Part shown: positions 1,660 through 27,910 of the stretch, in pieces
Layout of the letters: each line of letters begins with the position of its first letter
How positions within the stretch are numbered: the stretch's first letter is position 1
Position numbers and translations under genes: made by a program
Notes under the pieces: generated by a model
Database searches by the model: none
What the model saw: only the letters and a program-made list of their open reading frames with translations
What the model was told of the DNA's origin: nothing
Assembly: GCA_003599625.1 (NCBI GenBank)
Contig: QZIU01000008.1
Span: 1,690 to 65,689 of the forward strand
DNA: 64,000 nucleotides
Reading direction: 5' to 3'
Source of the DNA: Candidatus Parcubacteria bacterium
GTDB lineage: Bacteria > Patescibacteriota > Minisyncoccia > UBA9983

Positions 1660-1687
1660 AATTTTCAATTTTCAATTTTCAATTTTC
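1660..1687. repeat. Perfect tandem heptamer (aattttc)x4, 28 nt, intergenic
   Basis: Direct reading of the sequence. The same 28-nt tract recurs at 27321-27348 and as a reverse complement at 25951-25978. Confidence 0.9.
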
Positions 1688-1722
1688 AATAAATTTTCAA
1701 TGAATCAATTTTATCGCCAATC

Positions 1723-2967: not shown

Positions 2968-2990
2968 TTATAGCTGGCTACGCAATTGCG

Positions 2991-3030
2991 GAAAAGTTGT
3001 GGATAACTCAGCCAACCCGGCGGGTTGAAA
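2991..3030 (+). repeat. REP-like element copy 1 (TGTGGATAACTCAGCCAACCCGGCGGGTTG)
   Basis: Same ~45-nt family as 14609, 15096, 16702(rc) and 20725. Contains a perfect DnaA-box-like nonamer (rc TTATCCACA) and a 15-nt palindrome. Confidence 0.7.
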
Positions 3031-3094
3031 AGGGGTTAGAAGCGGCTTGAAAGCGAGAAAAAACTTAGGCATAATAAGAACGCACCACAAAATT

Positions 3095-3268: not shown

Positions 3269-3337
3269 GGGTTGTAGTACCAGCCTACCGGCAGGCAGGT
3301 ACCGGTAGTACGCACGTTTCGGGGTTCTCAATTTTCT
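3269..3337 (+). pseudogene. Degenerate partial copy of the tRNA-Pro 5' half, interrupted by an 18-nt GC palindrome
   Basis: gtagta...ggtagtacgcacgtttcgggg mirrors the D-arm/anticodon-arm sequence of the downstream tRNA-Pro but cannot fold as a tRNA. The palindrome cctaccggcaggcagg is inserted. Confidence 0.35.
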
Positions 3338-3408
3338 CGGGGTGTAGTATATCGGTAGTACGCACGCTTCGGGTGCGTGAAGGCCGAGTTCAATTCTCGG
3401 CACCCCGA
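3338..3408 (+). tRNA. tRNA-Pro (anticodon CGG)
   Basis: Acceptor stem cggggtg/caccccg, anticodon stem cacgc/gcgtg with loop ttCGGgt, T-arm ggccgagttcaattctcggc. Confidence 0.8.
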
Positions 3409-3439
3409 GAAAGTTGAGAACGGGAATGCCATACGGCAT

Positions 3440-5254: not shown

Positions 5255-6280
5255 TTATTTTACTTGAATCGTCTCTTTCGCCGCCGCTTTTATCTTTTCT
5301 TCCAATTCTTGGATCAATTTGGGATTTTCTGCTAGGTGCGTTTTGGCGTTGTCGTATCCGCGGCCGAGACTTTGGCCGTCGTAGGAGTAGGAAGCGCCCG
5401 CTTTCTTTATGATCTCATATTTTTCGCCCAAGTTTAAAATATCGCCGGTATAAGAAATTCCCTCGTTAAAAATGATGTCAAACTCGGCGGTTCTGAAGGG
5501 GGCTGCCACTTTATTTTTCACAATCTTTACTTTTACGCGGTTGCCGATAACATCTTCTCCTTTCTTGATCTGCGCCGCTCTTCTGACCTCAATTCTTACC
5601 GAACAATAAAATTTAAGAGCTTTTCCTCCGGGGGTGGTTTCCGGATTACCGAACATAATGCCGATCTGCATTCTGATCTGATTGATGAAGATAACGACGG
5701 TTTTTGATTTGGCGGTAATTGCCGTCAGTTTTCTGAGGGCTTGGGACATCAGCCGGGCCTGCAATCCGACATGGGATTGGCCCATTTCTCCTTCGATCTC
5801 GGCTTTAGGGGTAAGCGCGGCCACCGAATCGATAACAACGACATCGATACTGCCGGAGCGAACAAGGCTTTCCGTGATCTCCAAAGCCTGTTCTCCCGTG
5901 TCAGGTTGTGAGACGAGCAGGTCGTCGATCTTGACGCCAAGTTTTTTGGCATACTCCGGATCTAGGGCGTGTTCAGCATCGATGAAGGCGCAGACCCCGC
6001 CTTTTTTCTGGGCCTGAGCTATAGCGGTCAAGGCCAAAGTTGTCTTGCCGGAAGATTCCGGACCGTAAACCTCAATGATCCTGCCTCGCGGCAAACCGCC
6101 GACTCCAAGCGCCATATCAAGACTTAGGGAGCCGGAAGGTATGACATCAACATCAACCTTGGGTGTTTCGCCAAGCTTCATTATGGATCCGTCGCCGAAT
6201 TTGCTCTTGATATCGCGAAGAGCATTCTCAATGCCTGTGTCCCTGCCCTTCGATTCTTTTGGTTCTTTTTTTGAAATCAT
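5255..6280 (-). CDS. recA: Recombinase RecA
   Basis: Walker [14 protein letters not shown]1/L2 loop regions, and overall RecA-like sequence across 341 aa. Confidence 0.95.
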
Positions 6281-14597: not shown

Positions 14598-14608
14598 CTG
14601 TTCATAAT

Positions 14609-15146
14609 CTGTGTATAACTCATCCAACCCTGCCTACCGGCAGGCAGGCCGCCGGGTTGGAATTACCGATTTTCTAAGCTATAATCCCAGGCATGGGAAA
14701 TATTTACCATATCTTGAATCGGGGGGTTAATAAAGATCCGATTTTTCTCGGCACTAACGACTATTTGCGTTTTATCTACTGTCTTCATCGCTTCAACAAT
14801 CGCGGTCGCAGGCTTGGCGAAAGAGAAGATCCGAAGGAATACCTCAAAGACCCTCCTCCTCAAGACAAACTGGTCAATATTCTAAAGTGGAGCCTGATGC
14901 CGAATCATTATCATATTCTGGTTGAAGAAGTGGTCGAAGGAGGCGCGCTTAAATTCGTCCAGCGGGTTATCGCTGGTCTGATTATTTTTTAAGTGTTGGG
15001 AGCAGGGAGTTCCCGATGATAAGCGACAAAGAGGCCTTTTTTGAACTGTATGAAACCAACGAAGAAAAATATCTCGACAGCTTCCACGACTGGCTTGTGG
15101 AAAACCTGTGAACAACTCAGTCATGCCTGCCGGTAGGCAGGTTGGA
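14609..15146 (+). mobile_element. Minimal IS200/IS605-family-like element (~540 bp): Y1 HUH transposase gene bracketed by two REP-like subterminal hairpin sequences
   Basis: The left hairpin repeat lies at 14609-14662 and the right hairpin repeat at 15096-15146. Between them is a single tnpA-like ORF with a HUH motif. The size is typical of tnpA-only IS200 elements. Confidence 0.55.
14693..15111 (+). pseudogene. IS200/IS605-type Y1 (HUH) transposase, frameshifted near the T6 run at 14981-14990
   Basis: Frame 2 gives YHILNRGVNKDPIF...LMPNHYHILVEE (HUH motif). Frame 1 continues with DYFLSVGSRE...EEKYLDSFHDWLVENL, whose ~20-residue tail resembles the C-terminal end (…YIENQ-like) of this tnpA family. 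Whether a catalytic Tyr is retained was not verified. The two pieces are in different frames. Confidence 0.6.
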
Positions 15147-15266: not shown

Positions 15267-15956
15267 ATGATAGAATTAATTAATCAAGTCTTATTCAAAA
15301 AAATGCTAAAGTTTATAAAATTAAATCTTACAAAAATAAAATACGCTGGCAATTCCGTTGGCCGTGATATTAGAGTAGAGATTGAAGCCTTTGGAAAATT
15401 TTTCCGAGTTGATAAAAGAATTAAAGCGGGAGAAGCAAAAAGTATTGATCAAGAAATCTTAAGATTAGAATCAGATCAGGATGTGTTGCAATCAGATCTT
15501 GCCATAGCAGTCATCGAAAAAGATTTATTGTTTAGCGATACCGGCGCGCTGAAAAGCAGCATTAAAATCGATGTTGCCTCGGAGAAGTCACAAATATTCA
15601 GGTTTAATGTGGAGGTAAAGGAAAGCCGTTCGCTGTTGAGCAAATTATTCTGGGGCGGCAGGAAAGCCGTTTTCGAACTTGAATTTGAAGCGATAATCGG
15701 AGATGTCGAGAGATATATCCCAAATACGAAGGATGGCTGGTTTTTGACATTGGATAATAAGGATGACAATGCGTCATTGCCGGAATATCTAAAGTTGATC
15801 TTAAGGTATGAAAAGGGTGGACGTGAATCTGGGTTGGTTTCTGCGGGCTGTATCTCTATTGCAGAAACTGAGCGGTGGATGGAAATATACCGCACTCTTA
15901 TCAAAGCGCGCAAAGGAGATAATAGAAGTGTCGGTGTTTTAAAGGTTGTTGATTGA
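15267..15956 (+). CDS. Hypothetical protein
   Basis: ORF only. Its start codon lies 121 nt downstream of the REP-like copy at 15096-15146 that ends the IS200-like element. Confidence 0.4.
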   Translation: MIELINQVLFKKMLKFIKLNLTKIKYAGNSVGRDIRVEIEAFGKFFRVDKRIKAGEAKSIDQEILRLESDQDVLQSDLAIAVIEKDLLFSDTGALKSSIKIDVASEKSQIFRFNVEVKESRSLLSKLFWGGRKAVFELEFEAIIGDVERYIPNTKDGWFLTLDNKDDNASLPEYLKLILRYEKGGRESGLVSAGCISIAETERWMEIYRTLIKARKGDNRSVGVLKVVD

Positions 15957-16749
15957 TATTTCTATGCCTGGAAAATCTTTTTCAAAAGCCATTGCAATGA
16001 TTTTTGGGATAATTATCGCAATTTCTTTTTTGGCATTTGCTCTGCGTTGGAATAAAAAAGAAGAGGTTTCTCAGGTGGCAAAGCAATTAAGTCTGCCAGT
16101 TATAAGCTGGAAAAAAATTACCATAGAGAAGGAACCAAAAAAGTTCTTAATAAGCTTAAGGGTTCCCGAGGTGGCTTTTTACACCAATGATTCCTTGGCC
16201 GAAAAAATTAACGAGGATGTTGATAGATATATCGGAGCATTGAAGGATACTTTTATTCGAGGTGTCATAACTGCCGCCGATGATAACGGGGAAGCAAGCA
16301 CTCTCAATATCGATACGGAAATATTGCTTATGTCACCGCGTTTGATTTCCCTGGCTTTTACATCATCAGACCATCTGTCTGGCGGCAAAGTCGGCGACCT
16401 CGAGCGAACATATCTTATTTTCGACCTTGAAAAGGGCGAAATGATGAGGGAGGGAAACGAACTGTTTCGCGATGATTTGGCTTGGGCGGAAGCGGTAAGA
16501 ATAATGAAGCCGCTGCTGCTTTCTAAATATGACGGAGAACCAAGCTGTGATCTGATGTTTGCCCCGAAACGGGAAGCTTTCTCGGCCTCTTGCATCGGAG
16601 TTGATTACAACAATGAAGATAAAGGTCCTTTTTCTATATTCGGAGATATCCCAATTTCCGCAATCCAAGAATTTGTCGCTCCATGGGCGTTAAAAGAGAT
16701 TTTCCAACCCGGCGGGTTGGATGAGTTATCCACAGGTTTTCCACAATAA
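15946..16749 (+). CDS. Hypothetical membrane-anchored protein (possibly DUF3298/RsiV-like extracytoplasmic domain)
   Basis: N-terminal TM helix. The last 12 codons are supplied by the inverted REP-like copy at 16702-16746. Confidence 0.35.
   Translation: MLIDISMPGKSFSKAIAMIFGIIIAISFLAFALRWNKKEEVSQVAKQLSLPVISWKKITIEKEPKKFLISLRVPEVAFYTNDSLAEKINEDVDRYIGALKDTFIRGVITAADDNGEASTLNIDTEILLMSPRLISLAFTSSDHLSGGKVGDLERTYLIFDLEKGEMMREGNELFRDDLAWAEAVRIMKPLLLSKYDGEPSCDLMFAPKREAFSASCIGVDYNNEDKGPFSIFGDIPISAIQEFVAPWALKEIFQPGGLDELSTGFPQ
16702..16746 (-). repeat. REP-like element copy in inverted orientation (contains TTATCCACA)
   Basis: The reverse complement matches ttgtggaaaacctgtggataactcatccaacccgccgggttgg. 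Confidence 0.7.
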
Positions 16750-17514: not shown

Positions 17515-20500
17515 ATGAATCGTTTAGGCTTTATGAAAATATTTTCGTTAATTTTTTTAGGATTTTTCCCTGTGTTTAATTTTGTTTCAGCAAGCGAGAT
17601 TAAGTGTTCTGCCACAGGCTATTCAATCTTTGCTATAAACGGGATTTTTGTTGATGAAGACGAAGCAGATGACAATAAAACCGCACTTGAAAAAATTCTA
17701 CCTCCTTCCTTCAACAATCAACCCATCACCGTCGACTATCTCCACAACCCTTCTCATCTCGCCGGTCTGGGGGACTTGGTAAAGGTTGTATATCAGAAGA
17801 TCTTCGAATACGAGACGGTGATGGACTATGATCTGGTGGAAATGATCAGAGACGCCAGCGAGAAGGTGAAGACGCAAAAAGTCCTTCTCGTGGCTCACTC
17901 CCAAGGAAATTTCTACGCCAACAGTTTCTACGGCAGCGTGGCCGGAAAAGAAGGGGGTGTCCCCAAAGAATCCATAGGCGTTTACGCCGTCGCCACTCCG
18001 GCCGCAAGAGTGGCCGGAGAAGGGGGTTGGCTTACCTCCGACACCGACAAGGTCATCGCCGGCCTGATGTCGAAATTCCCGTTCAAACAAATCATGCCGC
18101 CCAATGACAGCATTGTCTTGAAAGAAGGCGATGATGAAATGGGACACAATTTTTCCCTCGTGTATCTCAAGTATAGCGGCGGAAAAATTGTCTCCGATAT
18201 CCAATCCTCTTTAAGTAAACTAACCTCAAGCGATGTTCAAGAGGAAGAAGAGAATTGCATCGATCCTCCGAAGATAACTTTGGCGCATAAGACCACGGGG
18301 GCGCTATTGGGCGTCTCCGACTTTGCCGGAGAATCGGTTGTCGATGCCGCCAAGGTTGTGGGAGAAAAATCATATCAACTGGGTTCATTGGCCGTAAAGA
18401 CCACCGAGCAAGTGGCTTCGGCGATAATAAAGGCTCCGGCTTTGATTTTAGGAGGTGGCCAAACTGATAACTCGGCCGCCGTCGCGGGGAATCCGGGAAA
18501 TTCCCAACCTGAGCCTGCTGAAAACTCTGCGGGTGGGCTGGAGTCTGTTGAAAACTCTGCAGTCCTGCCTGGTCGTCTTCGACCTGCCCGCCAGCCACTC
18601 TTCGCTGGCGATAGCGGGCGGGGAAGGTCGGCAGAGTTTTCAACAGGTGAAGTTGCTTCTAGGACTGCGGAGTTTTCTGCGGGAGACTCTACTAGCGAGC
18701 TGTGGAAAACTTCGCTCACCTTGCAGGTTGAAGACAACCAGCCAGGAGAGCGAAGTTTTCCACAGCCCCTTCGATCAAGAGGTTCGAATTTTTCCTCAAT
18801 CGCCCAACTCCAAAATTCTTTGGATGAGATGAGAAGACAAGCCGAGGCTTTGATGGAAGCGGAGAAGGGTGCGAAAAATGATCAAGCGGCTGAAGCTGAA
18901 GCCGCGACTCGCCAAGCCTCCCGTCCAACCCTTCTCTTCCTCGGTCCTCTGTATCCCGGCTTTGGCGGTGGAGCAGCTCCGAGTCAAATATCTCTTGTCT
19001 CAGAATCGAATCAACAGGAAGAAGAGGAAGAAGAAGAACAAGAGCCGGACTCTCTTTCGGCCCCGAATCTTCTCGTCCCTCAATGCGATTACTCTTTGGC
19101 TACGGACGGCTGTCTCCTCGCCACAACCACCGTATCATTTTCCTGGCAAGCCGTTTCCGGAGCTAGTCATTACGCCGTAAGCAAAAATGGAGAATACGCC
19201 ACGACCACGGAATTAAATTTTGTCGCAAACATCCCCGATTTCTCCGATTACAATTTCTCCGTCTCGGCCTCGTCGGCCGCTATCAGCCCCGCTTCCAGCG
19301 GGACAAGCACTCAAACTGTCTCTGTCGCCACTATTCCAATTGCCATAAACGAGATCGCCTGGATGGGAACAACCGCCTCTTCCTACGACGAATGGCTGGA
19401 AATCAAAAACAATACAAGCCATACGATAGACTTGTCTCAATGGGCCATAGAATCCCAAGACGGCCTGCCATATATCGCTCTTTCCGACGCGATCGGTCCG
19501 AAAGAATACCTTATCCTTGAAAGAAGGCAAGACGCGATAATCGTAAATCAATCCATCATTACCTACGGCACCGGAGCTTCCCAATGGGCGATGAGCAACA
19601 GCGGCGAAGAGCTTATCCTTTCTCATTCCTCCACCACGCTGGACAGAACCCCATCCGTAGCAGGCGAATGGGCCGCCGGAGACAGCGCAACCAGAAAAAC
19701 GATGGAGCGCGTCAATCCCAAAGGATCAGGAACCGATCCTTCCAACTGGACCACTTGGGGGGCAAATATCGATTTCATCAAAAGCGGCGAAGACACCGAT
19801 AATAACTCAATCTCCGGCACGCCCGGCCAATGCAATTCCGCAAGCTTCATCAACATCAACAACGGCCAAAACATATATCAGGATCTCACCCTTGAAAAAG
19901 ATAATTGCTATTATGTTTCAGAGAATATCCAAGTCTCGGCCACATCAACTCTTGCAATCGAATCCGGCGTTCAAGTCAGTCTTTATCTGAATAATCTTGT
20001 CGTCAACGGTGTCCTTGATGCCGAGGGGGAAGAAAGCAATCCGATAGTTTTCGATTCTTTTTCCGAAAATCCGACAACAAACAGGATAAGGATAAATAAC
20101 GATAACGGAACCAGTACAATGACCAATGTCGTTATCTCAAACACGGGAGGAATCAGGTTGAACAACGGAGCCGATCTGGAGATAACCAACGCGGAATTTA
20201 TCAACAACAATGCCAGCATCGAACTAAACAACAACAGCTCGGCGGAAATTGAAAACGTGACTTTCGCCAGCACCACGAATGAGGCGATCGCGGCGTACAA
20301 TGGCAGCAGTGTTTCTGTCGCTTCTTCCACTATATCCAACACCATCAACGCCGACGCTATCGGAATATACGATTCCAATCTATCGATGTCTTCGACAACG
20401 ATAGACACCGTTCTTGGCGGCGACGGCATAGGCGTTTATGATTCGACAGTTTCCATAGCCAGCTCTACGATCAGCAATGTTTTAAACGGAGATGGCATCA

Positions 20501-20715
20501 CCGCGTATCATTCAACCGTATCAATATCGACTTCCACAATAAGCGACATATCGAGCGAGATGCCGGCAAGAGACGGCATTAGTCTTTATGATGAATCTGT
20601 CGCGACTGTCCTAGACGCGGTAATCGAAAATGTCTCCGGCGAAGGTATAATCGTTTCGGAAGACAGTAGTATCTCCGGCAACGCGATAATAGAGGGGGAG
20701 GAAGTGGAGTTCTAG
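17515..20715 (+). CDS. Secreted multidomain protein: N-terminal alpha/beta-hydrolase (lipase-like) domain, GC-rich linker carrying an inserted palindromic element, lamin-tail domain (LTD), C-terminal right-handed beta-helix repeats
   Basis: Signal peptide. Nucleophile-elbow-like VAHSQGN is present. The LTD signature INEIAWMGT...DEWLEIKN...GEELIL is present. There are ~10 repeats of the xxISNTxxxDGIxxYxS beta-helix type. Confidence 0.75.
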   Translation: MNRLGFMKIFSLIFLGFFPVFNFVSASEIKCSATGYSIFAINGIFVDEDEADDNKTALEKILPPSFNNQPITVDYLHNPSHLAGLGDLVKVVYQKIFEYETVMDYDLVEMIRDASEKVKTQKVLLVAHSQGNFYANSFYGSVAGKEGGVPKESIGVYAVATPAARVAGEGGWLTSDTDKVIAGLMSKFPFKQIMPPNDSIVLKEGDDEMGHNFSLVYLKYSGGKIVSDIQSSLSKLTSSDVQEEEENCIDPPKITLAHKTTGALLGVSDFAGESVVDAAKVVGEKSYQLGSLAVKTTEQVASAIIKAPALILGGGQTDNSAAVAGNPGNSQPEPAENSAGGLESVENSAVLPGRLRPARQPLFAGDSGRGRSAEFSTGEVASRTAEFSAGDSTSELWKTSLTLQVEDNQPGERSFPQPLRSRGSNFSSIAQLQNSLDEMRRQAEALMEAEKGAKNDQAAEAEAATRQASRPTLLFLGPLYPGFGGGAAPSQISLVSESNQQEEEEEEEQEPDSLSAPNLLVPQCDYSLATDGCLLATTTVSFSWQAVSGASHYAVSKNGEYATTTELNFVANIPDFSDYNFSVSASSAAISPASSGTSTQTVSVATIPIAINEIAWMGTTASSYDEWLEIKNNTSHTIDLSQWAIESQDGLPYIALSDAIGPKEYLILERRQDAIIVNQSIITYGTGASQWAMSNSGEELILSHSSTTLDRTPSVAGEWAAGDSATRKTMERVNPKGSGTDPSNWTTWGANIDFIKSGEDTDNNSISGTPGQCNSASFININNGQNIYQDLTLEKDNCYYVSENIQVSATSTLAIESGVQVSLYLNNLVVNGVLDAEGEESNPIVFDSFSENPTTNRIRINNDNGTSTMTNVVISNTGGIRLNNGADLEITNAEFINNNASIELNNNSSAEIENVTFASTTNEAIAAYNGSSVSVASSTISNTINADAIGIYDSNLSMSSTTIDTVLGGDGIGVYDSTVSIASSTISNVLNGDGITAYHSTVSISTSTISDISSEMPARDGISLYDESVATVLDAVIENVSGEGIIVSEDSSISGNAIIEGEEVEF
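18510..18775 (+). repeat. GC-rich palindromic MITE/RPE-like element(s) inserted in frame in a coding region (16-bp TIR ctgttgaaaactctgc at 18546/18631, core cgacctgcccgcc...ggcggggaaggtcg)
   Basis: Local GC content far exceeds the genome background. Nested inverted repeats are present. The core is shared with 21309-21429. Confidence 0.6.
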
Positions 20716-20724
20716 CCATGATTT

Positions 20725-20770
20725 CCTGTGGATAAACCTGTTGATAACTCAGCCAACATGCCGGGTTGGA
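20725..20770 (+). repeat. REP-like element copy between convergent genes (cctgtggataaacctgttgataactcagccaacatgccgggttgg)
   Basis: Family match. Overlaps the last codons of the minus-strand glycosyltransferase gene. Confidence 0.65.
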
Positions 20771-22089
20771 ATGAGGGAATATGCCGCGATGGTGTCGTCT
20801 AGCATTTTCTGGAGGGAGAATTTTGACAGGATTTTTTGGCGAAGATTGGCGGCGAATTGCTCGCGAAGATTTTTATCTTCCATCAGCTTTTTAATCGCTT
20901 CGGCTAGGGCTTCAGGATTTTTGGGTGGCGCCAAAATGCCTTCTTTTCCGTTATCTATGATCTCCGGTATGCCTCCGACGCTGGAAGCAATAACCGGCAA
21001 TCCGGCCAAGCCGGCTTCAAGTAACAGATAAGGCAGGCCTTCTTTGACGGAAGGCAAGACAAAAATATCAAGGGCTTTAAGATAATTGGCCGAGTTCGGA
21101 TCAGACAATTCGTTTTTACCGATTATAAAAAATTTATCTCCAATTTCGTAATTCTTGATTCTTGATTCATAATTCTTTTTTTCTTCCCCCCAGCCAATAA
21201 GGATAGTCGTCAAGCGATAGCCTCTAGCCGCTAGCGAATGGATCGCTTCGATCAAGTTTATGTGTCCTTTGTTTTTGGTAAACTCGCCAATGGTGCCGAT
21301 AAGGTGGTCTGATAAATTTGCCGACCTTCCCCGCCCGCTATCGCCAGCGAAGCGTGGCGGGCGGGCAGGTTGAAGACAACCAGCTTGCCCCGCCAAATAC
21401 GGCGGGGGCAGGACTTCAAATTTATCAGACTGCGATTTATAATTTGCCGCAAGCTCCTCTCTTGCCCTTTCTTTTTCCAAGAAATTATAATCCTCCTGTT
21501 TGATTCCGTTATGTATTACTGTCATTTTTCTTGCCGGAGCGATTTTGTTTTTTATCGCCTCTCTATAATCATTTTCCGAGACACAGATTATTTTGTCGTA
21601 AAAAAGACAAGTCAACCTACTGATCATTTTTATAAGTATGTTTTGCCAGCGGAGCCGGTCTTCGAGAAAGGCCCAACCGTGAACTGTAAACACAGTGGAA
21701 AGTTGAAAGTGGAAAGTTGAAAGTTTATAAACAAAACAAGCCAATCCCGCAGCTCCGCCTGCTTTGGAGCTGGACACATGAACAATGTCAGGCCTTGTTT
21801 TCAAAAGAAGAAAAAAAACTTCAACAGAAGAAAAAATATCTTTTAAGAAATTTACATTTCTTTGAAAATTTTTAATTTCAAAATAGGGCAAGTTGGCCCC
21901 TGTCAGCCTTTGGGCCATCAGGCCTCTTCCGCCTCCCGCGATAATCGGCTCAAATTGATCCTTTGGCAGATTTGTCGCCAGGTCGAAAACATATTTCTGA
22001 GCCCCGCCCCAGACCGACTTGGTTATGATATATAAAACCTTCTTTTTCGTTGATTTTTCGGGCATTTTATTATACCGTAAGGATACCAT
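20749..22089 (-). CDS. Glycosyltransferase family 1 (GT-B fold; GT4-like)
   Basis: C-terminal EGLPYLLLEAGLAGLPVIASSVGGIPEII motif. Carries two in-frame repeat insertions (21309-21429 and 21695-21726). The start (22089 or 22065) overlaps the divergent neighbour. Confidence 0.8.
   Translation of the reverse strand: MVSLRYNKMPEKSTKKKVLYIITKSVWGGAQKYVFDLATNLPKDQFEPIIAGGGRGLMAQRLTGANLPYFEIKNFQRNVNFLKDIFSSVEVFFLLLKTRPDIVHVSSSKAGGAAGLACFVYKLSTFHFQLSTVFTVHGWAFLEDRLRWQNILIKMISRLTCLFYDKIICVSENDYREAIKNKIAPARKMTVIHNGIKQEDYNFLEKERAREELAANYKSQSDKFEVLPPPYLAGQAGCLQPARPPRFAGDSGRGRSANLSDHLIGTIGEFTKNKGHINLIEAIHSLAARGYRLTTILIGWGEEKKNYESRIKNYEIGDKFFIIGKNELSDPNSANYLKALDIFVLPSVKEGLPYLLLEAGLAGLPVIASSVGGIPEIIDNGKEGILAPPKNPEALAEAIKKLMEDKNLREQFAANLRQKILSKFSLQKMLDDTIAAYSLIPTRHVG
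21309..21429. repeat. Second copy of the GC-rich palindromic element, with 12-13-bp TIRs (tctgataaatttg/caaatttatcaga)
   Basis: Core ccgaccttccccgcccgctatcgccagcgaagcgtggcgggcgggcaggttgaagacaaccagc is near-identical to the reverse complement of 18583-18634. Confidence 0.65.
21695..21726. repeat. Heptamer-periodic tract (gtggaaa gttgaaa)x2, 28 nt plus gttt, inside the GT gene
   Basis: Direct reading. Encodes STFHFQLSTV in frame. Confidence 0.8.
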
Positions 22090-22096
22090 ATTTATG

Positions 22097-23263
22097 GATC
22101 TTTCTGAAGAAAAACGAAAAAGAATCCTTATTTTTTCCCTGGCTTACGCGCCATTCGTGGGCGGGGCGGAGCTGGCAGTCAAGGAAATTACCGATAGGAT
22201 CGATAATGCCGATTTTGATCTAATCACCCTCCGTTTCGACCGGAAATGGCCTAGAAAAGAGCGACTCGGCAATGTAAATGTTTATCGGATCGGCGGAGGG
22301 AAGCTTTTCTTCCCCATTTTTGCTTTTTGTAAAGCGAACAGGCTTCATAAAAAAAACCCGTTTGATTTGGTCTGGTCTATCATGGCAAACCGGGCGGGGT
22401 TCGCTGCGTTGTTTTTTAAACTTCGGCATCCGGAAGTCAAATATTTGCTCACTTTGCAGGAGGGCGACCCAGTCGATCATCCGTTCAGGCAGATGGGGGT
22501 GCTCAGATATTTTTTGACCAGGCTTTACCGGAAAGTTTTCAGCAAGGCGGATTGCATGCAGGCGATAAGCAATTATCTGGCGGAATGGGGAAGGAACATG
22601 GGAGTAAGGGCGGAAGTGGAGGTGGTGCCGAATGGAGTGGATACGAAGTCCATAAAGTCGAAAGTTCATAAAGTTCATAAAGTTAAAGACAAAAATAAAA
22701 AAACAATAATTACGACCTCGAGATTGGTTCATAAAAACGGGATTGATACTTTGATCAGAGCGGTGAGTAAATTAAAGCTACAAGCTACAAGCTACAAGCT
22801 ACAAGCCCTTATTCTCGGCGCGGGGCCGGAGGAGCAAAAGCTGAAAAATCTGGCAAAAGAATTGCAGGTTGAAGATGTTGTCAGATTTCTCGGCCATGTC
22901 GGGCCAGAGAAAATTCCGGATTATTTGGGTCAGGCCGATATATTCGTGAGGCCTTCAAGGTCGGAAGGCTTGGGGAGTTCTTTCCTGGAAGCGATGGGGG
23001 CGGGGCTTCCCGTGATAGGCACAAGAACGGGCGGCATTGTTGATTTTATTAAAGATCCTGAAGATGTCGGCCCGAACGTTGCCACCGGAGTCTTTGCCAA
23101 AATAGACGATCCGGAAGACTTGGCCTACAAGATCCGCATGCTCTTCATTAACGACGAGTTGGCCGGCTTTATCTCGCGAAACGGCAAGTGGCTGGTGGAG
23201 AACAATTATTCCTGGGACAGCGTGGCCGTCAGAATGCGAGAAATTTTTAGTAAAGTTGCATAA
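22097..23263 (+). CDS. Glycosyltransferase family 1 (GT-B)
   Basis: GLGSSFLEAMGAGLPVIGTRTGG motif. Start taken at MDLSEEKRKRILIF because the longer ORF overlaps the divergent gene. Contains the (gctacaa)x4 tract and the aaagttcat repeats. Confidence 0.8.
   Translation, partial: DLSEEKRKRILIFSLAYAPFVGGAELAVKEITDRIDNADFDLITLRFDRKWPRKERLGNVNVYRIGGGKLFFPIFAFCKANRLHKKNPFDLVWSIMANRAGFAALFFKLRHPEVKYLLTLQEGDPVDHPFRQMGVLRYFLTRLYRKVFSKADCMQAISNYLAEWGRNMGVRAEVEVVPNGVDTKSIKSKVHKVHKVKDKNKKTIITTSRLVHKNGIDTLIRAVSKLKLQATSYKLQALILGAGPEEQKLKNLAKELQVEDVVRFLGHVGPEKIPDYLGQADIFVRPSRSEGLGSSFLEAMGAGLPVIGTRTGGIVDFIKDPEDVGPNVATGVFAKIDDPEDLAYKIRMLFINDELAGFISRNGKWLVENNYSWDSVAVRMREIFSKVA
22777..22804 (+). repeat. Perfect tandem heptamer (gctacaa)x4, 28 nt, in frame (encodes LQATSYKLQ)
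   Basis: An identical tract in the same reading frame occurs at 26212-26239 in a different GT gene. Confidence 0.9.
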
Positions 23264-23310: not shown

Positions 23311-23928
23311 ATGAACAAAATCATCAAAATTAAAGACAGAACATCAGCCGGTAATCGCATTGCTGAGATTGCTTCGCGGGGCGAGGTAGTTTTCCATTCC
23401 GGGGATCTGGCGAACTTATGGGGTATTCAAAACAAAAGTACTCTGAATAAAACTCTTCTCAGGTACGCCGCCAGAAAATTTATCTATCGAATTTATAAAG
23501 GGCTTTATGCGCTAAAAAAGATTGAGGATATAGATCCATTTTTTCTGGGGATAAAGGCCATACACGGTCCCGCGTATGTGTCTTGCGAGTCGGCGCTTTA
23601 CGAGTTCGGTATTCTAAATCAGCCCCCGAAAGAAATCACCTTGGTAAGTTCTTTTTCTAGACATTTTAAGGTTGACGGTTACAAGTATCGTTCCAGAAAA
23701 ATGAAGGATGACTTTCTTTATAATGATATCGGCATAGAAGTTAGAAACGGCATAAGGATTGCTTCCGTGGCGAGAGCCGTTGCTGACATGCTTTACTTTA
23801 ATCCGCGGAAATATTTTGACGCTTGGAATTCCGGTTTGATCGACCGCAAAGAAGTAAAAAATATTATCGATGCCATGGGTTATAAAATCAAACTTCCGAA
23901 ACATGAGTTCAATGATATTGCCGGATAA
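23311..23928 (+). CDS. AbiEi-like antitoxin/transcriptional regulator (type IV TA)
   Basis: ~200-aa protein with an N-terminal wHTH-like region. Its end overlaps a downstream AbiEii-family nucleotidyltransferase gene, the canonical AbiE operon arrangement. Confidence 0.5.
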   Translation: MNKIIKIKDRTSAGNRIAEIASRGEVVFHSGDLANLWGIQNKSTLNKTLLRYAARKFIYRIYKGLYALKKIEDIDPFFLGIKAIHGPAYVSCESALYEFGILNQPPKEITLVSSFSRHFKVDGYKYRSRKMKDDFLYNDIGIEVRNGIRIASVARAVADMLYFNPRKYFDAWNSGLIDRKEVKNIIDAMGYKIKLPKHEFNDIAG

Positions 23929-24646
23929 AAAAGACGCCATTCACAAAGCTTGGCTTTACAGGGTTCTGCAGTCACTCGCGGATGAGCCTTATCTTGCGGG
24001 TTGTTTATATTTTAAGGGCGGGACATGCGCTTCCATGCTTGGTTGGCTGGACAGATTTTCCGTTGATCTGGATTTTGATTACGCAGGGGAGGAGAAAGAT
24101 GTCAAAAAAACAAAAATCTTACTTGAGAAAATTTTTGCCGAATTGGGGTTGACTATTAAAGACGGCAGTAAAAACGGAATCCAATATTTTCTGAAATACG
24201 AGAATGACGGCCGGGGGAGAAGAATATTAAAACTGGATGCTTCGTTTCCACTCTTTCATGCCAGCAAGTATAAGCCGGAGAGATTTTTGGAGATAGACAG
24301 AATTCTGAACTGCCAAACCAAAGAAACGATGTTTGCTCATAAGCTCGTTGCTTTGAGGGACAGGTTCAACCGAACCGGGGGCATCGCGGGAAGAGATATA
24401 TACGACATTCACCATTTTTTCATGAATGGATGGAAATATGATACAGAGGTGATCATAGAAAGAACCGACAAAGAGCCGAAAGAGTTTCTAAAAGAACTCG
24501 TTGGATTTATAGAAACCAAGGTTTCCAAAAAACATATTGATGAAGACTTGAACCCGCTCCTTCCGGCGGGTAAATTCGCTTTGGCTCGTAAAGTTCTAAA
24601 GGGGGAAACAATTAGCCTTATAAAAGATGAAATAAGGAGGTTGTAG
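23903..24646 (+). CDS. AbiEii/AbiGii-family nucleotidyltransferase toxin (DUF1814)
   Basis: LYFKGGTCASMLGWLDRFSVDLDFDY matches the GGTAL...RFSEDIDF nucleotidyltransferase motif of AbiEii. Confidence 0.7.
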   Translation: MSSMILPDKKDAIHKAWLYRVLQSLADEPYLAGCLYFKGGTCASMLGWLDRFSVDLDFDYAGEEKDVKKTKILLEKIFAELGLTIKDGSKNGIQYFLKYENDGRGRRILKLDASFPLFHASKYKPERFLEIDRILNCQTKETMFAHKLVALRDRFNRTGGIAGRDIYDIHHFFMNGWKYDTEVIIERTDKEPKEFLKELVGFIETKVSKKHIDEDLNPLLPAGKFALARKVLKGETISLIKDEIRRL

Positions 24647-25703: not shown

Positions 25704-27910
25704 AAATTTTAAGTATAGGCACGGACAGAAAAATATTTGATGAGAATTCTGAAGTTAGAAAGAGAGTTATTGAATATGGCAAATTGGCGGAAGAATTACA
25801 CATCGTAATTTTAACTCAAAAGTCAAAAGTCAAAACTCAAAACGACAAATCAAAACTTAGTATATCAAATAATGCGTTTATTTATCTGACAAATTCAAGA
25901 AATAAATTATTTTATATTTTTGATGCAATAAAAATCGGCAAAAAAATAATTGAAAATTGGAAATTGAAAATTGAAAATTCAAGTGACAAGCCTCTTGTCA
26001 CTTGCCAGGATCCTTTTGAAACCGGCTTTATTGGTTGGAGAATTGCGAGAAAATTCAAATTGCCGTTGCAACTACAGGTTCATACCGATTTTTTAAGCCC
26101 ATATTTCTGGAAGGAATCTTTTTTAAATAAAATCCGAGTTTTGCTGGGGAAATTTTTAATCAAACGCGCGGATAGCATCAGGGTTGTGAGCGAAAGAATC
26201 AAACAATCTTTGCTACAAGCTACAAGCTACAAGCTACAAACTAAAGTAACCGTACTTCCGATTTTTGTAGATACGGAAAAAATAAAAAATACGCCGATCA
26301 AAACCGACCTCCATAAAAAATATCCCCAATTCGATTTCATTATTCTGATGGCCTCGCGCTTCAGCAAAGAGAAAAATATTGAGCTGGCGATCGGGGCATT
26401 CAGCGAAGTTGTTAAAATTCATCCAAAAGTCGGCTTAATCATCGTCGGTTCCGGCCAGGAAAAACAGAATTATGAACCTGCCTGCCGGCGAGGCAGGTCA
26501 AGAATAAAGAAAGAATTGCAGAAGAATATAATAATAGAGAATTGGACGGACGATCTAGCTTCTTATTACAAAACTACTGACCTGTTTTTGCTAACCTCCA
26601 ATTATGAAGGCTATGGCAGGACTTTGGTTGAAGCTGCCGCAGTTGGCTGCAAAATCATTTCCAGCGATGCCGGCGTCGCGCCGGAAATTTTGGAAAAAGA
26701 AAATATTTTCGCCGTAGGGGATAAAAATGGTTTAATCCAGAAACTTATTGCCGCTCTTTCTGGCAGTATTAAAGAAACTAAAACGATTCCAACAAAGACA
26801 AAAGAAGAATATTTAAAGGAGTATAAAGAAATTTGGGAATCTGCAGGAAAGAGAAAACCAAAAATTTTAATCGTTACCCAAAAAGTTGATATCAACGACG
26901 ATGTCCTGGGTTTTTTCCACGATTGGCTGAGCAAAATGGCAGAATCGGCCGATTTGGTTGTTGTTGCAAATTCTGTCGGAAGATATGAGTTGCCGGAAAA
27001 TGTAAAGATTTTCTCTTTGGGTAAGGAAAGGGGAGCGGGGAAGCTTGCAAAGTTTTTTAAATACCAGTTCTTGCTATTGAAATTCTTGCCAAAGTCAGAC
27101 GGCATATTTTACCACATGTGCCCGGAGTATGTATTTTCGGCGGGACTTTGGCCGAAAATATTCAGGAAAAAAACCTTGCTATGGTATACTCATAAGGCGG
27201 TTAACTGGAAACTCAAATTGGCGGAAAAATTGATTGACGGGGTATTTACCGCCTCAAAAGAGAGTTTCAGATTGCCTTCAAAAAAAGTCGAGATTACGGG
27301 GCATGGGATAGACCTCGAAAAATTTTCAATTTTCAATTTTCAATTTTCAAAAAAAGACAAAAAGACTAATGATAAATTTAGAATCATAAGTGTGGGGAGG
27401 ATCGCGCCGGTGAAGAATTATGATTTGTTGATAGATGCCGCGGAGATATTGAAAAATAAGAATTTTAGCGCGGGAAATTGGGAAATCAAAATTGCCGGAT
27501 CGCCGGCTTTAGAGAGCGACAAAATTTATTTTGAAAGACTGAAAGAAAAGATCCGAGAAAAAAAACTGGAAGATGAAATAATTTTTGTCGGCCCCATTCC
27601 AAACAAAGATATTGTGGATTTTTACCAAAAAGGCGATCTGTTTGTAAATTTTAGCGATACTGGCAGCTTGGATAAAGCGGTGCTTGAGGCCATGGCTTGC
27701 GGATTGAAGATTCTGACTTCGAATGAGGCGTTTGCAAGAATGATTCCTGAAGAAGATTTTACTAAGAATGACGCTGGTTCAATCGCCAATAAAATATTTA
27801 ACTTATCTCAAAAAGAAAATAATTCAGATCTGCAACTATTTGTTGTAGAAAAACATAACCTTGCTAATTTGATTAAAAATGTCGTGAATTTTTATAGAGA
27901 GACTATCTAG
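25700..27910 (+). CDS. Tandem two-module glycosyltransferase family 1 protein (two GT-B units)
   Basis: Two E-x7-E-type C-terminal GT1 motifs (EGYGRTLVEAAAVGCKIISS and GSLDKAVLEAMACGLKILTS). Carries four short-repeat insertions. Confidence 0.8.
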   Translation: MKILSIGTDRKIFDENSEVRKRVIEYGKLAEELHIVILTQKSKVKTQNDKSKLSISNNAFIYLTNSRNKLFYIFDAIKIGKKIIENWKLKIENSSDKPLVTCQDPFETGFIGWRIARKFKLPLQLQVHTDFLSPYFWKESFLNKIRVLLGKFLIKRADSIRVVSERIKQSLLQATSYKLQTKVTVLPIFVDTEKIKNTPIKTDLHKKYPQFDFIILMASRFSKEKNIELAIGAFSEVVKIHPKVGLIIVGSGQEKQNYEPACRRGRSRIKKELQKNIIIENWTDDLASYYKTTDLFLLTSNYEGYGRTLVEAAAVGCKIISSDAGVAPEILEKENIFAVGDKNGLIQKLIAALSGSIKETKTIPTKTKEEYLKEYKEIWESAGKRKPKILIVTQKVDINDDVLGFFHDWLSKMAESADLVVVANSVGRYELPENVKIFSLGKERGAGKLAKFFKYQFLLLKFLPKSDGIFYHMCPEYVFSAGLWPKIFRKKTLLWYTHKAVNWKLKLAEKLIDGVFTASKESFRLPSKKVEITGHGIDLEKFSIFNFQFSKKDKKTNDKFRIISVGRIAPVKNYDLLIDAAEILKNKNFSAGNWEIKIAGSPALESDKIYFERLKEKIREKKLEDEIIFVGPIPNKDIVDFYQKGDLFVNFSDTGSLDKAVLEAMACGLKILTSNEAFARMIPEEDFTKNDAGSIANKIFNLSQKENNSDLQLFVVEKHNLANLIKNVVNFYRETI
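25814..25856 (+). repeat. Heptamer-periodic tract (NNcaaaa)x6 inside the GT gene
   Basis: ctcaaaa gtcaaaa gtcaaaa ctcaaaa cgacaaa tcaaaac, in frame (QKSKVKTQNDKSKL). Confidence 0.75.
25951..25978 (+). repeat. (gaaaatt)x4, 28 nt, reverse complement of the aattttc tract, in frame
   Basis: Direct reading. Unit 2 is ggaaatt. Confidence 0.85.
26212..26239 (+). repeat. (gctacaa)x4, 28 nt, in frame (LQATSYKLQ)
   Basis: Identical to 22777-22804. Confidence 0.9.
27321..27348 (+). repeat. (aattttc)x4, 28 nt, in frame (FSIFNFQFS)
   Basis: Identical to the intergenic tract at 1660-1687. Confidence 0.9.

Follow-up and report, generated by a model that had tools for sequence, protein, structure and literature searches.

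A translated palindrome repeated in two neighbouring genes of a Parcubacteria genome, and its possible spread by hairpin-dependent copying

Bacteria of the candidate phyla radiation (CPR) have tiny genomes in which few mobile elements are recognised, and 'selfish' palindromes that are translated in frame are textbook oddities of Rickettsia and Wolbachia. To our knowledge, the origin of elements resembling the Rickettsia palindromic elements (RPEs) has been unsettled for 25 years. Here we analyse a 64-kb stretch of DNA (the window), part of a 78-kb contig from a metagenome-assembled genome of Candidatus Parcubacteria (Patescibacteria/CPR), in which a GC-rich palindrome lies within the gene of a putatively secreted protein and recurs in the neighbouring glycosyltransferase gene. 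How did such a segment arise inside reading frames, and by what process might its arms be kept perfect?

The presence of a 102-nt in-frame palindrome was confirmed. This copy, c1 (18545-18646, forward strand), has a perfect 16-bp outer stem formed by a left arm at 18545..18560 (CTGTTGAAAACTCTGC, encoding SVENSA) and a right arm at 18631..18646 (GCAGAGTTTTCAACAG, encoding AEFSTG), which enclose a GC-rich core of 70 nt (18561..18630). A first-pass annotation, made from the letters alone, had found this inverted repeat, placing its start at 18546, one base off. In the core an imperfect stem, P2 (18561-18569/18624-18630), closes over hairpin B (18571-18584, GGTCG-TCTT-CGACC) and hairpin C (18586-18623). 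The core is free of stop codons in four of six frames, and c1 is read through within ORF 17515..20715 as ...AVLPGRLRPARQPLFAGDSGRGRSAEFSTGEV..., contributing to an interdomain linker as originally proposed. At 69% GC (0.686) the core stands out from its host gene (49%) and from the window (40.5%); it is the genome that is AT-rich, not the gene, as had been stated.

Arm-like sequences were also correctly noticed on both sides of c1. The outermost, imperfect arm a1 (18514..18533, forward strand, CCTGCTGAAAACTCTGCGGG) carries one mismatch within the 16-mer and pairs with 18664-18683 to give the outermost helix of the minimum free energy fold. Its partner belongs to an arm copy on the reverse strand (18661..18683, AGGACTGCGGAGTTTTCTGCGGG), which has a double role: besides pairing with a1, it repeats in reverse complement the c1 left arm and the six core nucleotides next to it; 18661-18677 is 94% complementary to 18550-18566 over 17 nt. 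Since this segment holds six core bases beside the arm, reverse-complement copying would have passed the boundary between arm and core at least once. A 51-nt core pattern occurred twice in the window and gave no match across 100 shuffles. The predicted fold of c1 reaches -58.7 kcal/mol, and the interval 18500-18780 has a z-score of -7.85 against shuffles. When the window was scanned for GC islands, just two loci stood out, at about -0.5 kcal/mol per nt: the c1 region and a second copy, c2.

Copy c2 (21307-21430, reverse strand) is a palindrome of 124 nt within host gene 2 (20749..22089, reverse strand), which is convergent with host gene 1 and encodes a GT4-family glycosyltransferase. It lies in frame in the linker (aa 229-259) between the two Rossmann-type domains of the enzyme (Pfam Glyco_transf_4, 27-197; Glycos_transf_1, 260-418). 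A 74-nt stretch of c1 (18569-18642) matches 21310-21383 of the opposite strand at 91% identity, core identity being 91-94%, and the reading frame relative to the element is the same in both (PARPPRFAGDSGRGRSA in c2, PARQPLFAGDSGRGRSA in c1). Hairpins B (21368-21381, GGTTG/CAACC) and C (21329-21366) are joined in c2 by an extra hairpin A (21388-21407), and the whole is closed by a locus-specific, perfect 14-bp outer stem (GTCTGATAAATTTG/CAAATTTATCAGAC). The predicted fold of the 124 nt is -71.9 kcal/mol, with a z-score of -4.9 for 21290-21450. A third copy, c3 (18699-18766, reverse strand), is found in host gene 1 in reverse orientation and without hairpin C; its outer stem of 19 bp (GCTGTGGAAAACTTCGCTC/GAGCGAAGTTTTCCACAGC) is perfect, and the copy is translated in frame as ELWKTSLTLQVEDNQPGERSFPQP. 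Short-word BLASTN matched 20 nt of c3 (18723-18742) identically to c2 (21365-21384), and in a manual module alignment c3 follows c1 module by module once hairpin C is removed. The first-pass annotation had described a single element with solo terminal repeats; c1 stands as such an element, but the internally deleted copy at 18699-18766 and the full copy at 21307-21430 had gone unrecognised.

All three copies share a common plan consisting of a copy-specific outer stem P1, the imperfect stem P2 and hairpin B (GGTYG-TCTT-CRACC), to which hairpin C (GCCCGCC...GGCGGGG) is added in c1 and c2 and hairpin A in c2 only. The shared modules are 85-100% identical, while the flanks are unrelated. The copies alternate in orientation (c2 reverse, c1 forward, c3 reverse) and all fall within 2.9 kb of the window; three random sites in 64 kb would cluster this closely with a chance of 0.006. 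No further copies or fragments were found in the remaining 61 kb by short-word BLASTN, by the GC-island and fold scan or with a hairpin-C covariance model.

Comparison with orthologues indicates that these segments were added to pre-existing proteins. ORF 17515..20715 (forward strand) encodes the 1066-aa protein RJQ32442.1 (locus tag C4572_00880), which has an N-terminus that resembles a signal peptide as judged by eye only, a conserved N-terminal domain (aa 1-~316), a variable linker (aa ~320-470), an LTD (lamin-tail) domain at 608-708 and a right-handed Beta_helix at 902-1057 (Pfam). Matches to its orthologues are interrupted at aa ~316-470. In two MAFFT alignments of 18 and 16 sequences, together 34 distinct full-length orthologues of 38-60% identity, none had the 32 residues AVLPGR...STGEV (18558-18653, 96 nt), and the c3 residues were likewise missing from all 34; the c1 right arm fell inside the inserted segment in both alignments. 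The closest orthologue (57-61% protein identity) reads ...ANNP/ASVISVFD... at the c1 site, marked here by the stroke, and its locus (L056) is free of perfect inverted repeats of at least 11 bp. The 31 residues of c2 were in turn lacking in 22 of 22 glycosyltransferase orthologues. AlphaFold modelled the window glycosyltransferase with a pLDDT of 85 overall, and its sole internal stretch below 50 (226-259) is the c2 insert; for the 1066-aa protein the mean pLDDT was 49, low in the conserved N-terminal domain too, and the model is uninformative on the linker. Because the segments are missing from 34 and 22 orthologues, with a clean gap in each alignment, and because the c2 loop is of low confidence, the reading of c1, c3 and c2 as in-frame insertions into interdomain linkers holds at the level of these comparisons.

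Linkers of this kind are highly variable and hard to align, and some amplification methods are known to generate inverted chimeras, so that an ancestral low-complexity linker or an assembly or amplification chimera might be suspected in place of an insertion. Such an explanation is barely credible here. Two unrelated genes have 74 nt in common at 91%, which an ancestral linker would not explain, and against an artefact stand the intact reading frames of all copies, the equivalent palindromes in nine independent assemblies from different projects and the length of the repeat, which is shorter than a sequencing read.

The outer stems behave differently from the modules that they enclose. Those of c1 (CTGTTGAAAACTCTGC) and c3 (CTGTGGAAAACTTCGC) agree at 13 of 16 positions, and each change is mirrored on the partner arm. 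Between c1 and c2 (GTCTGATAAATTTG) only about 9 of 16 positions agree, although the arms are perfectly complementary within each copy. The repeat that had been taken for a conserved 'terminal inverted repeat' (TIR) is therefore not conserved, c2 having another, equally perfect stem. Hairpin B differs between c1 and the other two copies by one compensatory exchange of C-G to T-A. Pairing is nearly pure Watson-Crick, and the antisense strand folds as well as the sense strand (sense/antisense -58.7/-58.2, -71.9/-71.8 and -48.0/-50.0 kcal/mol for c1, c2 and c3), as would be expected of a palindrome in DNA but not of a strand-specific RNA structure.

We obtained the DNA of eight orthologous glycosyltransferase loci from independent Patescibacteria assemblies. 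In all eight the linker is coded by a perfect palindrome with a stem of 13-25 bp (L016 977-1005; L017 5716-5759; L018 1872-1928; L057 10616-10646; L058 4016-4070; L059 3692-3736; L060 2341-2385; L061 2952-2996), and in seven this is the longest perfect inverted repeat of the locus, L016 having a longer one at a site near aa ~115 of the same gene. Seven of the eight share the ends CTTGGA...TCCAAG and differ in their centres, and in five a unit runs on into its own reverse complement. Across these five two-unit forms both sides were changed in 9 of 22 pairs, with 98% of cells paired and 2 G-U cells; no shuffle gave covariation as high as observed, and slid controls collapsed. Peptide motifs such as ALGSS...LEAELPSG are translated palindrome arms. 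The orthologues P0005, P0007 and P0009 have short linkers without this segment, which is therefore dispensable for the enzyme. Since the linker is palindromic in all eight orthologues of which the DNA was obtained, c2 sits on an already palindromic site, with the GC-rich modules at its centre, and the glycosyltransferase gene is accordingly the likely source and host gene 1 the recipient.

Palindromes are abundant at these loci in general, with 33 perfect inverted repeats of at least 11 bp across nine loci where block shuffles gave about 2. Around aa ~115 the glycosyltransferase has a second hotspot, at which other genomes carry in-frame palindromic insertions of two other kinds (L016 643-721; L018 about 1540-1620; L059; L060 2028-2082; L017 5385-5470). 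One family, with the peptide …AKPF..GHSG.S.ET.LPIP…, forms a perfect stem of 25 bp in L016; its members in L018 and L059 have decayed, and the one in L060 has done so in part, with a perfect stem of 13 bp left. A second glycosyltransferase gene, on two contigs of one sample (L018 474-561; L060 979-1066), carries the 18-bp stem (G/A)AAAAACATTGGCTTTTC around a 52-nt loop, and a perfect 18-bp stem also occurs within a gene for an LTD/PKD protein (L058 4749-4785).

The other kind of insertion at aa ~115 bears on the window element itself. In L017 it is GC-rich and, at 5408-5452, significantly resembles hairpin C (CCCGCCCGCC..CTTCGC..GGCGAT..CGGGCG.GG), with a local alignment score of 34 against a shuffle null of 14.5 +/- 2.3. 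Its covariance model score was 45.6 bits, the L017 sequence being among those from which the model was built. Over the window and nine Patescibacteria loci (133 kb) the same hairpin-C model returned the three training sequences and a weak hit in L060 (3456-3498, E = 0.065).

A selected hairpin, too, would be kept at one point of the linker, as the palindrome is in 8 of 8 orthologues, and would show strong covariation. Such cis-acting structures in mRNA or DNA could mark domain boundaries as a translational pause that lets the domains fold one by one, as a binding site for RNase or another protein or as a determinant of mRNA stability, with the peptide as a by-product, and the very stable predicted folds and the location of all three window copies in interdomain linkers agree with this. 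We nevertheless consider selection for structure improbable. Pairing is strand-symmetric and restricted to Watson-Crick pairs, stems other than CTTGGA/TCCAAG are not conserved, and modules are freely gained and lost between copies. The short-linker glycosyltransferases do without the segment and all host-protein orthologues do without c1 and c3. Nor was any Rfam family detected in the window at its gathering score, the threshold being reached by tRNAs only; at E values up to 10 the sole matches were generic miRNA-hairpin models on c3, with 29 bits against a gathering score of 49 bits.

Searches for relatives beyond these loci returned little. The exact word GCTGGCGATAGCGGGCGGGG had 12 chance matches in 185,579 species genomes (596 Gb), all in genomes of 58-72% GC and none extending past the seed, and exact TTCGCTGGCGATAGCGGGCGG had three in the JGI metagenomes, in a Tat signal peptide and a thiolase gene. 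The source contig came up in neither scan and is therefore not in those collections, and exact 20/21-mers would miss diverged copies. The copy count accordingly rests at three within the 64-kb window, with chance matches alone in the public collections. A scan of viral contigs with a degenerate pattern, fitting the L017 variant and not the window core, gave 37 chance matches in GC-rich contigs. Six-frame core peptides had no match among 5.8 billion proteins in a search that was insensitive, as the window's own proteins were not recovered either. The papers searched contained no description of such elements in CPR/Patescibacteria, in agreement with the first-pass annotation, which was aware of none.

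Several other identities were considered and set aside. The element had no match that would indicate a tRNA or tmRNA origin. An intron, an intein, a diversity-generating retroelement (DGR) and a CRISPR array were rejected on the basis of the stop-free translation, the lack of catalytic or repeat-spacer architecture and differences between copies that are not adenine-specific. DnaA-box-like 9-mers occur in the arms and in a repeat found at gene ends, but are not enriched (22 against 14.6 +/- 3.9 expected), and an origin of replication was rejected. A 12-14-nt match at 22862-22875 proved to be ordinary glycosyltransferase coding sequence.

Could the element be a classical non-autonomous transposable element, either a miniature inverted-repeat transposable element (MITE) or of RPE type, mobilised by a transposase in trans? 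The 16-bp repeats would then be TIRs and the clustering would reflect local hopping, c3 having arisen by deletion and c2 having diverged or lost its mobility. A core that is 91-94% identical in two unrelated genes and open in four of six frames, like an RPE, is what such an element would produce, and the hairpin-C-like module at another site in another Patescibacteria genome points the same way. The ends of c1 and c3 are indeed similar (13/16), and the motif TGTKGAAAAC occurs in the window more often than expected (6 times against 0.46). However, the c2 ends are unlike those of c1 and c3 while perfectly complementary to each other. No direct repeat of at least 3 bp flanks c1 or c3, contrary to what a target-site duplication would leave. 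At c2 the self-complementary hexamer AAATTT stands beside both ends, where it may represent either a target duplication of 6 bp or a portion of the stem itself; the RPEs themselves have TIRs of about 12 bp and no established target duplication (PMC2229807). No transposase domain, and no Y1-transposase domain, was detected in the 27 larger ORFs of the window that were scanned with Pfam, about half of its large ORFs, among them RecA, NusG, FtsK, a P-type ATPase and a long glycosylation cluster. The lack of copies in the other 61 kb and of non-chance exact matches in the 596 Gb of genomes and the metagenome collection adds to these difficulties, as does a glycosyltransferase site that is palindromic in all orthologues and so predates any such insertion. 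Because the c2 stem differs, c1 and c3 lack a duplication, the copies are clustered and alternate in orientation, and the reverse-complement copy at 18661-18677 spans the boundary by taking in core bases beside the arm, we do not regard the element as a cut-and-paste MITE, and transposition of this kind seems to us unlikely. Of the overall interpretation offered by the first-pass annotation, the repeated, in-frame, RPE-like insert is thereby retained and the MITE is not.

We instead favour, at roughly even chances, an RPE-like protein-coding palindrome that is made, kept perfect and copied by a hairpin-dependent process at the level of DNA, without a dedicated transposase. This copying mechanism is what we infer from the copy-specific stems, the Watson-Crick symmetry, the modular gain and loss of hairpins, the local reverse-complement copies and the palindrome that already existed at the target. 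Two signatures of template switching during replication are present. Sequences are the reverse complement of others nearby (c3 relative to c1/c2; 18661-18677; c1 relative to c2 over 2.7 kb; the two-unit linkers), and the strand-symmetric Watson-Crick stems carry multi-base compensatory changes. Nesting of one palindrome in another occurs elsewhere in the window, at 14606-14660, where the palindrome CCTGCCTACCGGCAGGCAGG lies in the loop of a CCAACCC...GGGTTGG hairpin.

Under hairpin-dependent copying the region would consist of protein-coding palindromes, some nested and others side by side, that are built on a GC-rich, modular core of ~70 nt (an imperfect closing stem, the small hairpin B, the larger hairpin C and the optional hairpin A) within disordered interdomain linkers of two convergent genes for cell-surface proteins. 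Template switching during replication could write reverse-complement copies nearby and homogenise stem arms. Alternatively, a break at the tip of a hairpin might be repaired with sequence copied from another palindrome. In either case new modules would join at the centre of an existing palindrome, whose arms would then be lengthened and corrected through reverse-complement copying. The order of events may have been that the palindrome of the glycosyltransferase linker gained a GC-rich centre to become c2, that a reverse-complement copy of c2 entered the neighbouring gene as c1, and that c1 gave rise to c3 by reverse-complement copying to a site ~150 nt away, with loss of hairpin C. By analogy with known elements the palindrome behaves like a selfish or neutral one that is tolerated in flexible parts of proteins.

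Several points weigh against this account. Template-switch events are typically short-range, and the step from c2 to c1 spans 2.7 kb, a distance that would call for recombinational repair or for a switch of longer range. The assignment of one arm of each outer stem to the host varies with the alignment used. The AAATTT flanks of c2 leave room for a target duplication. The clustering is judged from 64 kb of genome only, and the databases held no relative above 61% protein identity from which single events might be reconstructed. Finally, the hairpin-C-like module at a different site in the L017 genome, our main evidence on this point, suggests either some mobility or an old, widely inherited module, and purely local copying is therefore insufficient as an explanation.

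A wider proposal, which we regard as somewhat doubtful, is that Patescibacteria harbour self-perpetuating protein-coding palindromes that arise and stay perfect over very long evolutionary times, expanding from the centre and reaching neighbouring genes by transposase-free, hairpin-templated DNA synthesis or repair. Cell-surface and glycosylation proteins would quite generally obtain new disordered interdomain linkers in this way, and the window would have caught a spread from the glycosyltransferase linker into the adjacent secreted protein. If true, RPE-like behaviour in Parcubacteria would mean that the phenomenon is not bound to intracellular Alphaproteobacteria, and the anatomy of the copies would point to a transposase-free route for the origin and spread of such elements. 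Their origin would become testable on metagenome data. Genome annotation is affected as well, as spurious ORFs arise on the antisense strand of such segments and CPR proteins seem to carry 'insertions' there. One example is the 158-aa antisense ORF 18167..18643 (reverse strand), which had rightly been suspected to be an artefact, because it is stop-poor GC-rich sequence within a conserved sense gene.

Host gene 1 contains further small repeats. Just 5' of the c1 region, 18471-18500 is a window-specific linker segment (LILGGGQTDNSAAVAGNPGNSQ) that is also missing in most orthologues and holds the small palindrome GGGAAT-CCGGGA-ATTCCC. Two inverted repeats in the N-terminal domain (17996-18022 and 18136-18201), namely ACTCCGGCC/GGCCGGAG and a 21-nt pair of 86%, are probably coincidental or small footprints of template switching, because they are located in residues conserved among orthologues.

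A dispersed repeat of a different type lies at gene ends and comprises TTGTGGAAAACCTGTGGATAACTCA and a GC hairpin, CCAACCCGSCGGGTTGG. It occurs in both orientations in the first 21 kb only (2985-3031; 14599-14660; 15095-15142; 16701-16747; 20727-20771; 3279-3319), and in one copy the loop encloses the palindrome CCTGCCTACCGGCAGGCAGG. ORF 15946..16749 and the glycosyltransferase gene take their final codons from the repeat. The 10-mer TGTGGAAAAC is common to the repeat and the c3 arms, and perfect DnaA-box 9-mers occur within the repeat, DnaA boxes not being enriched overall. The tRNA-Pro gene (3337-3409) lies between the halves of a 21-nt inverted repeat (3324-3344/3401-3421, 95% complementary) that carries the acceptor stem ~12 bp further, into the leader and the trailer. 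Tandem repeats of heptanucleotides, with 3.9-4.6 units, are numerous in the window (1660-1690; 21151-21177; 21694-21725; 22775-22806; 25813-25843; 25948-25979; 26212-26243; 27321-27350). The 28-mer (GCTACAA)4 is found in two different glycosyltransferase-type genes and AATTTTC tracts at three sites, and these may be slipped-strand, phase-variable tracts of surface-glycosylation genes. The window also has a break in composition. Positions 1-24000, which hold all the GC-rich repeats, are mostly 43-53% GC per 1-kb bin (38-39% at 15-17 kb), and positions 24000-64000 are 30-42% GC and contain a long co-directional cluster of glycosylation and methyltransferase genes; an AbiEii toxin gene (23870..24646) lies near the break.

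How, then, does the element compare with known systems? The closest parallel is with the RPEs, reportedly described by Ogata et al. in 2000 and 2002. RPEs and the protein-coding palindromic repeats of Wolbachia are ~100-150 bp long and are found in frame in conserved genes (PMC2229807, PMC10969869). The window element shares with them its length and stable stem-loop (c1 102 nt, c2 124 nt), its open frames, its in-frame insertion into unrelated conserved genes at positions that the protein fold tolerates, its absence from orthologues and its lack of an established target duplication or known transposase; the likeness to RPEs seen in the first-pass annotation is borne out in being repeated, palindromic and inserted in frame in linkers. 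In contrast to RPEs, it comes from the phylum Patescibacteria/Parcubacteria, and given phylum and base composition a sequence relationship is not expected. It is GC-rich in a 40%-GC genome and gains and loses hairpins as modules, its outer stems are copy-specific where those of RPEs are family-specific, and it has three clustered copies so far where RPEs number dozens and are dispersed.

Bacterial MITEs (Correia/NEMIS, ERIC, RUP, BOX and cyanobacterial MITEs) are likewise small repeats with long hairpins and no coding capacity. MITEs are defined by family-wide TIRs and target-site duplications, often of TA. The window copies lack conserved TIRs and clear target duplications. Occasional in-frame fusions of bacterial MITEs have been described (PMC10969869). 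The GC-rich short palindromes and their nesting also recall REP/BIME sequences with their RAYT transposases, and the nested small dispersed repeats of cyanobacteria. Typical of REPs are a position outside genes and an associated RAYT gene, whereas the three window copies are intragenic and a RAYT-type gene was not seen in the scanned ORFs.

Template switching at palindromes and quasipalindromes is said to go back to the model of Ripley, with work in E. coli by the Lovett laboratory and later studies by Monttinen and Loytynoja (2022) and Abraham and Hazkani-Covo (2021). The process creates perfect hairpins and multi-base compensatory changes in stems, homogenises and expands arms and alters coding sequence (PMC8794818, PMC8604942, PMC13100816). 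The window resembles such mutations in its nearby reverse-complement copies, perfect stems, compensatory changes, homogenised arms and amino-acid changes within genes (PMC8794818, PMC8604942, PMC13100816, PMC7202029). It goes beyond the described events, which involve a few to tens of bases at short range, in that a 70-nt module would have been carried over 2.7 kb into another gene, and in that palindromes of up to 124 nt persist across deep divergence.

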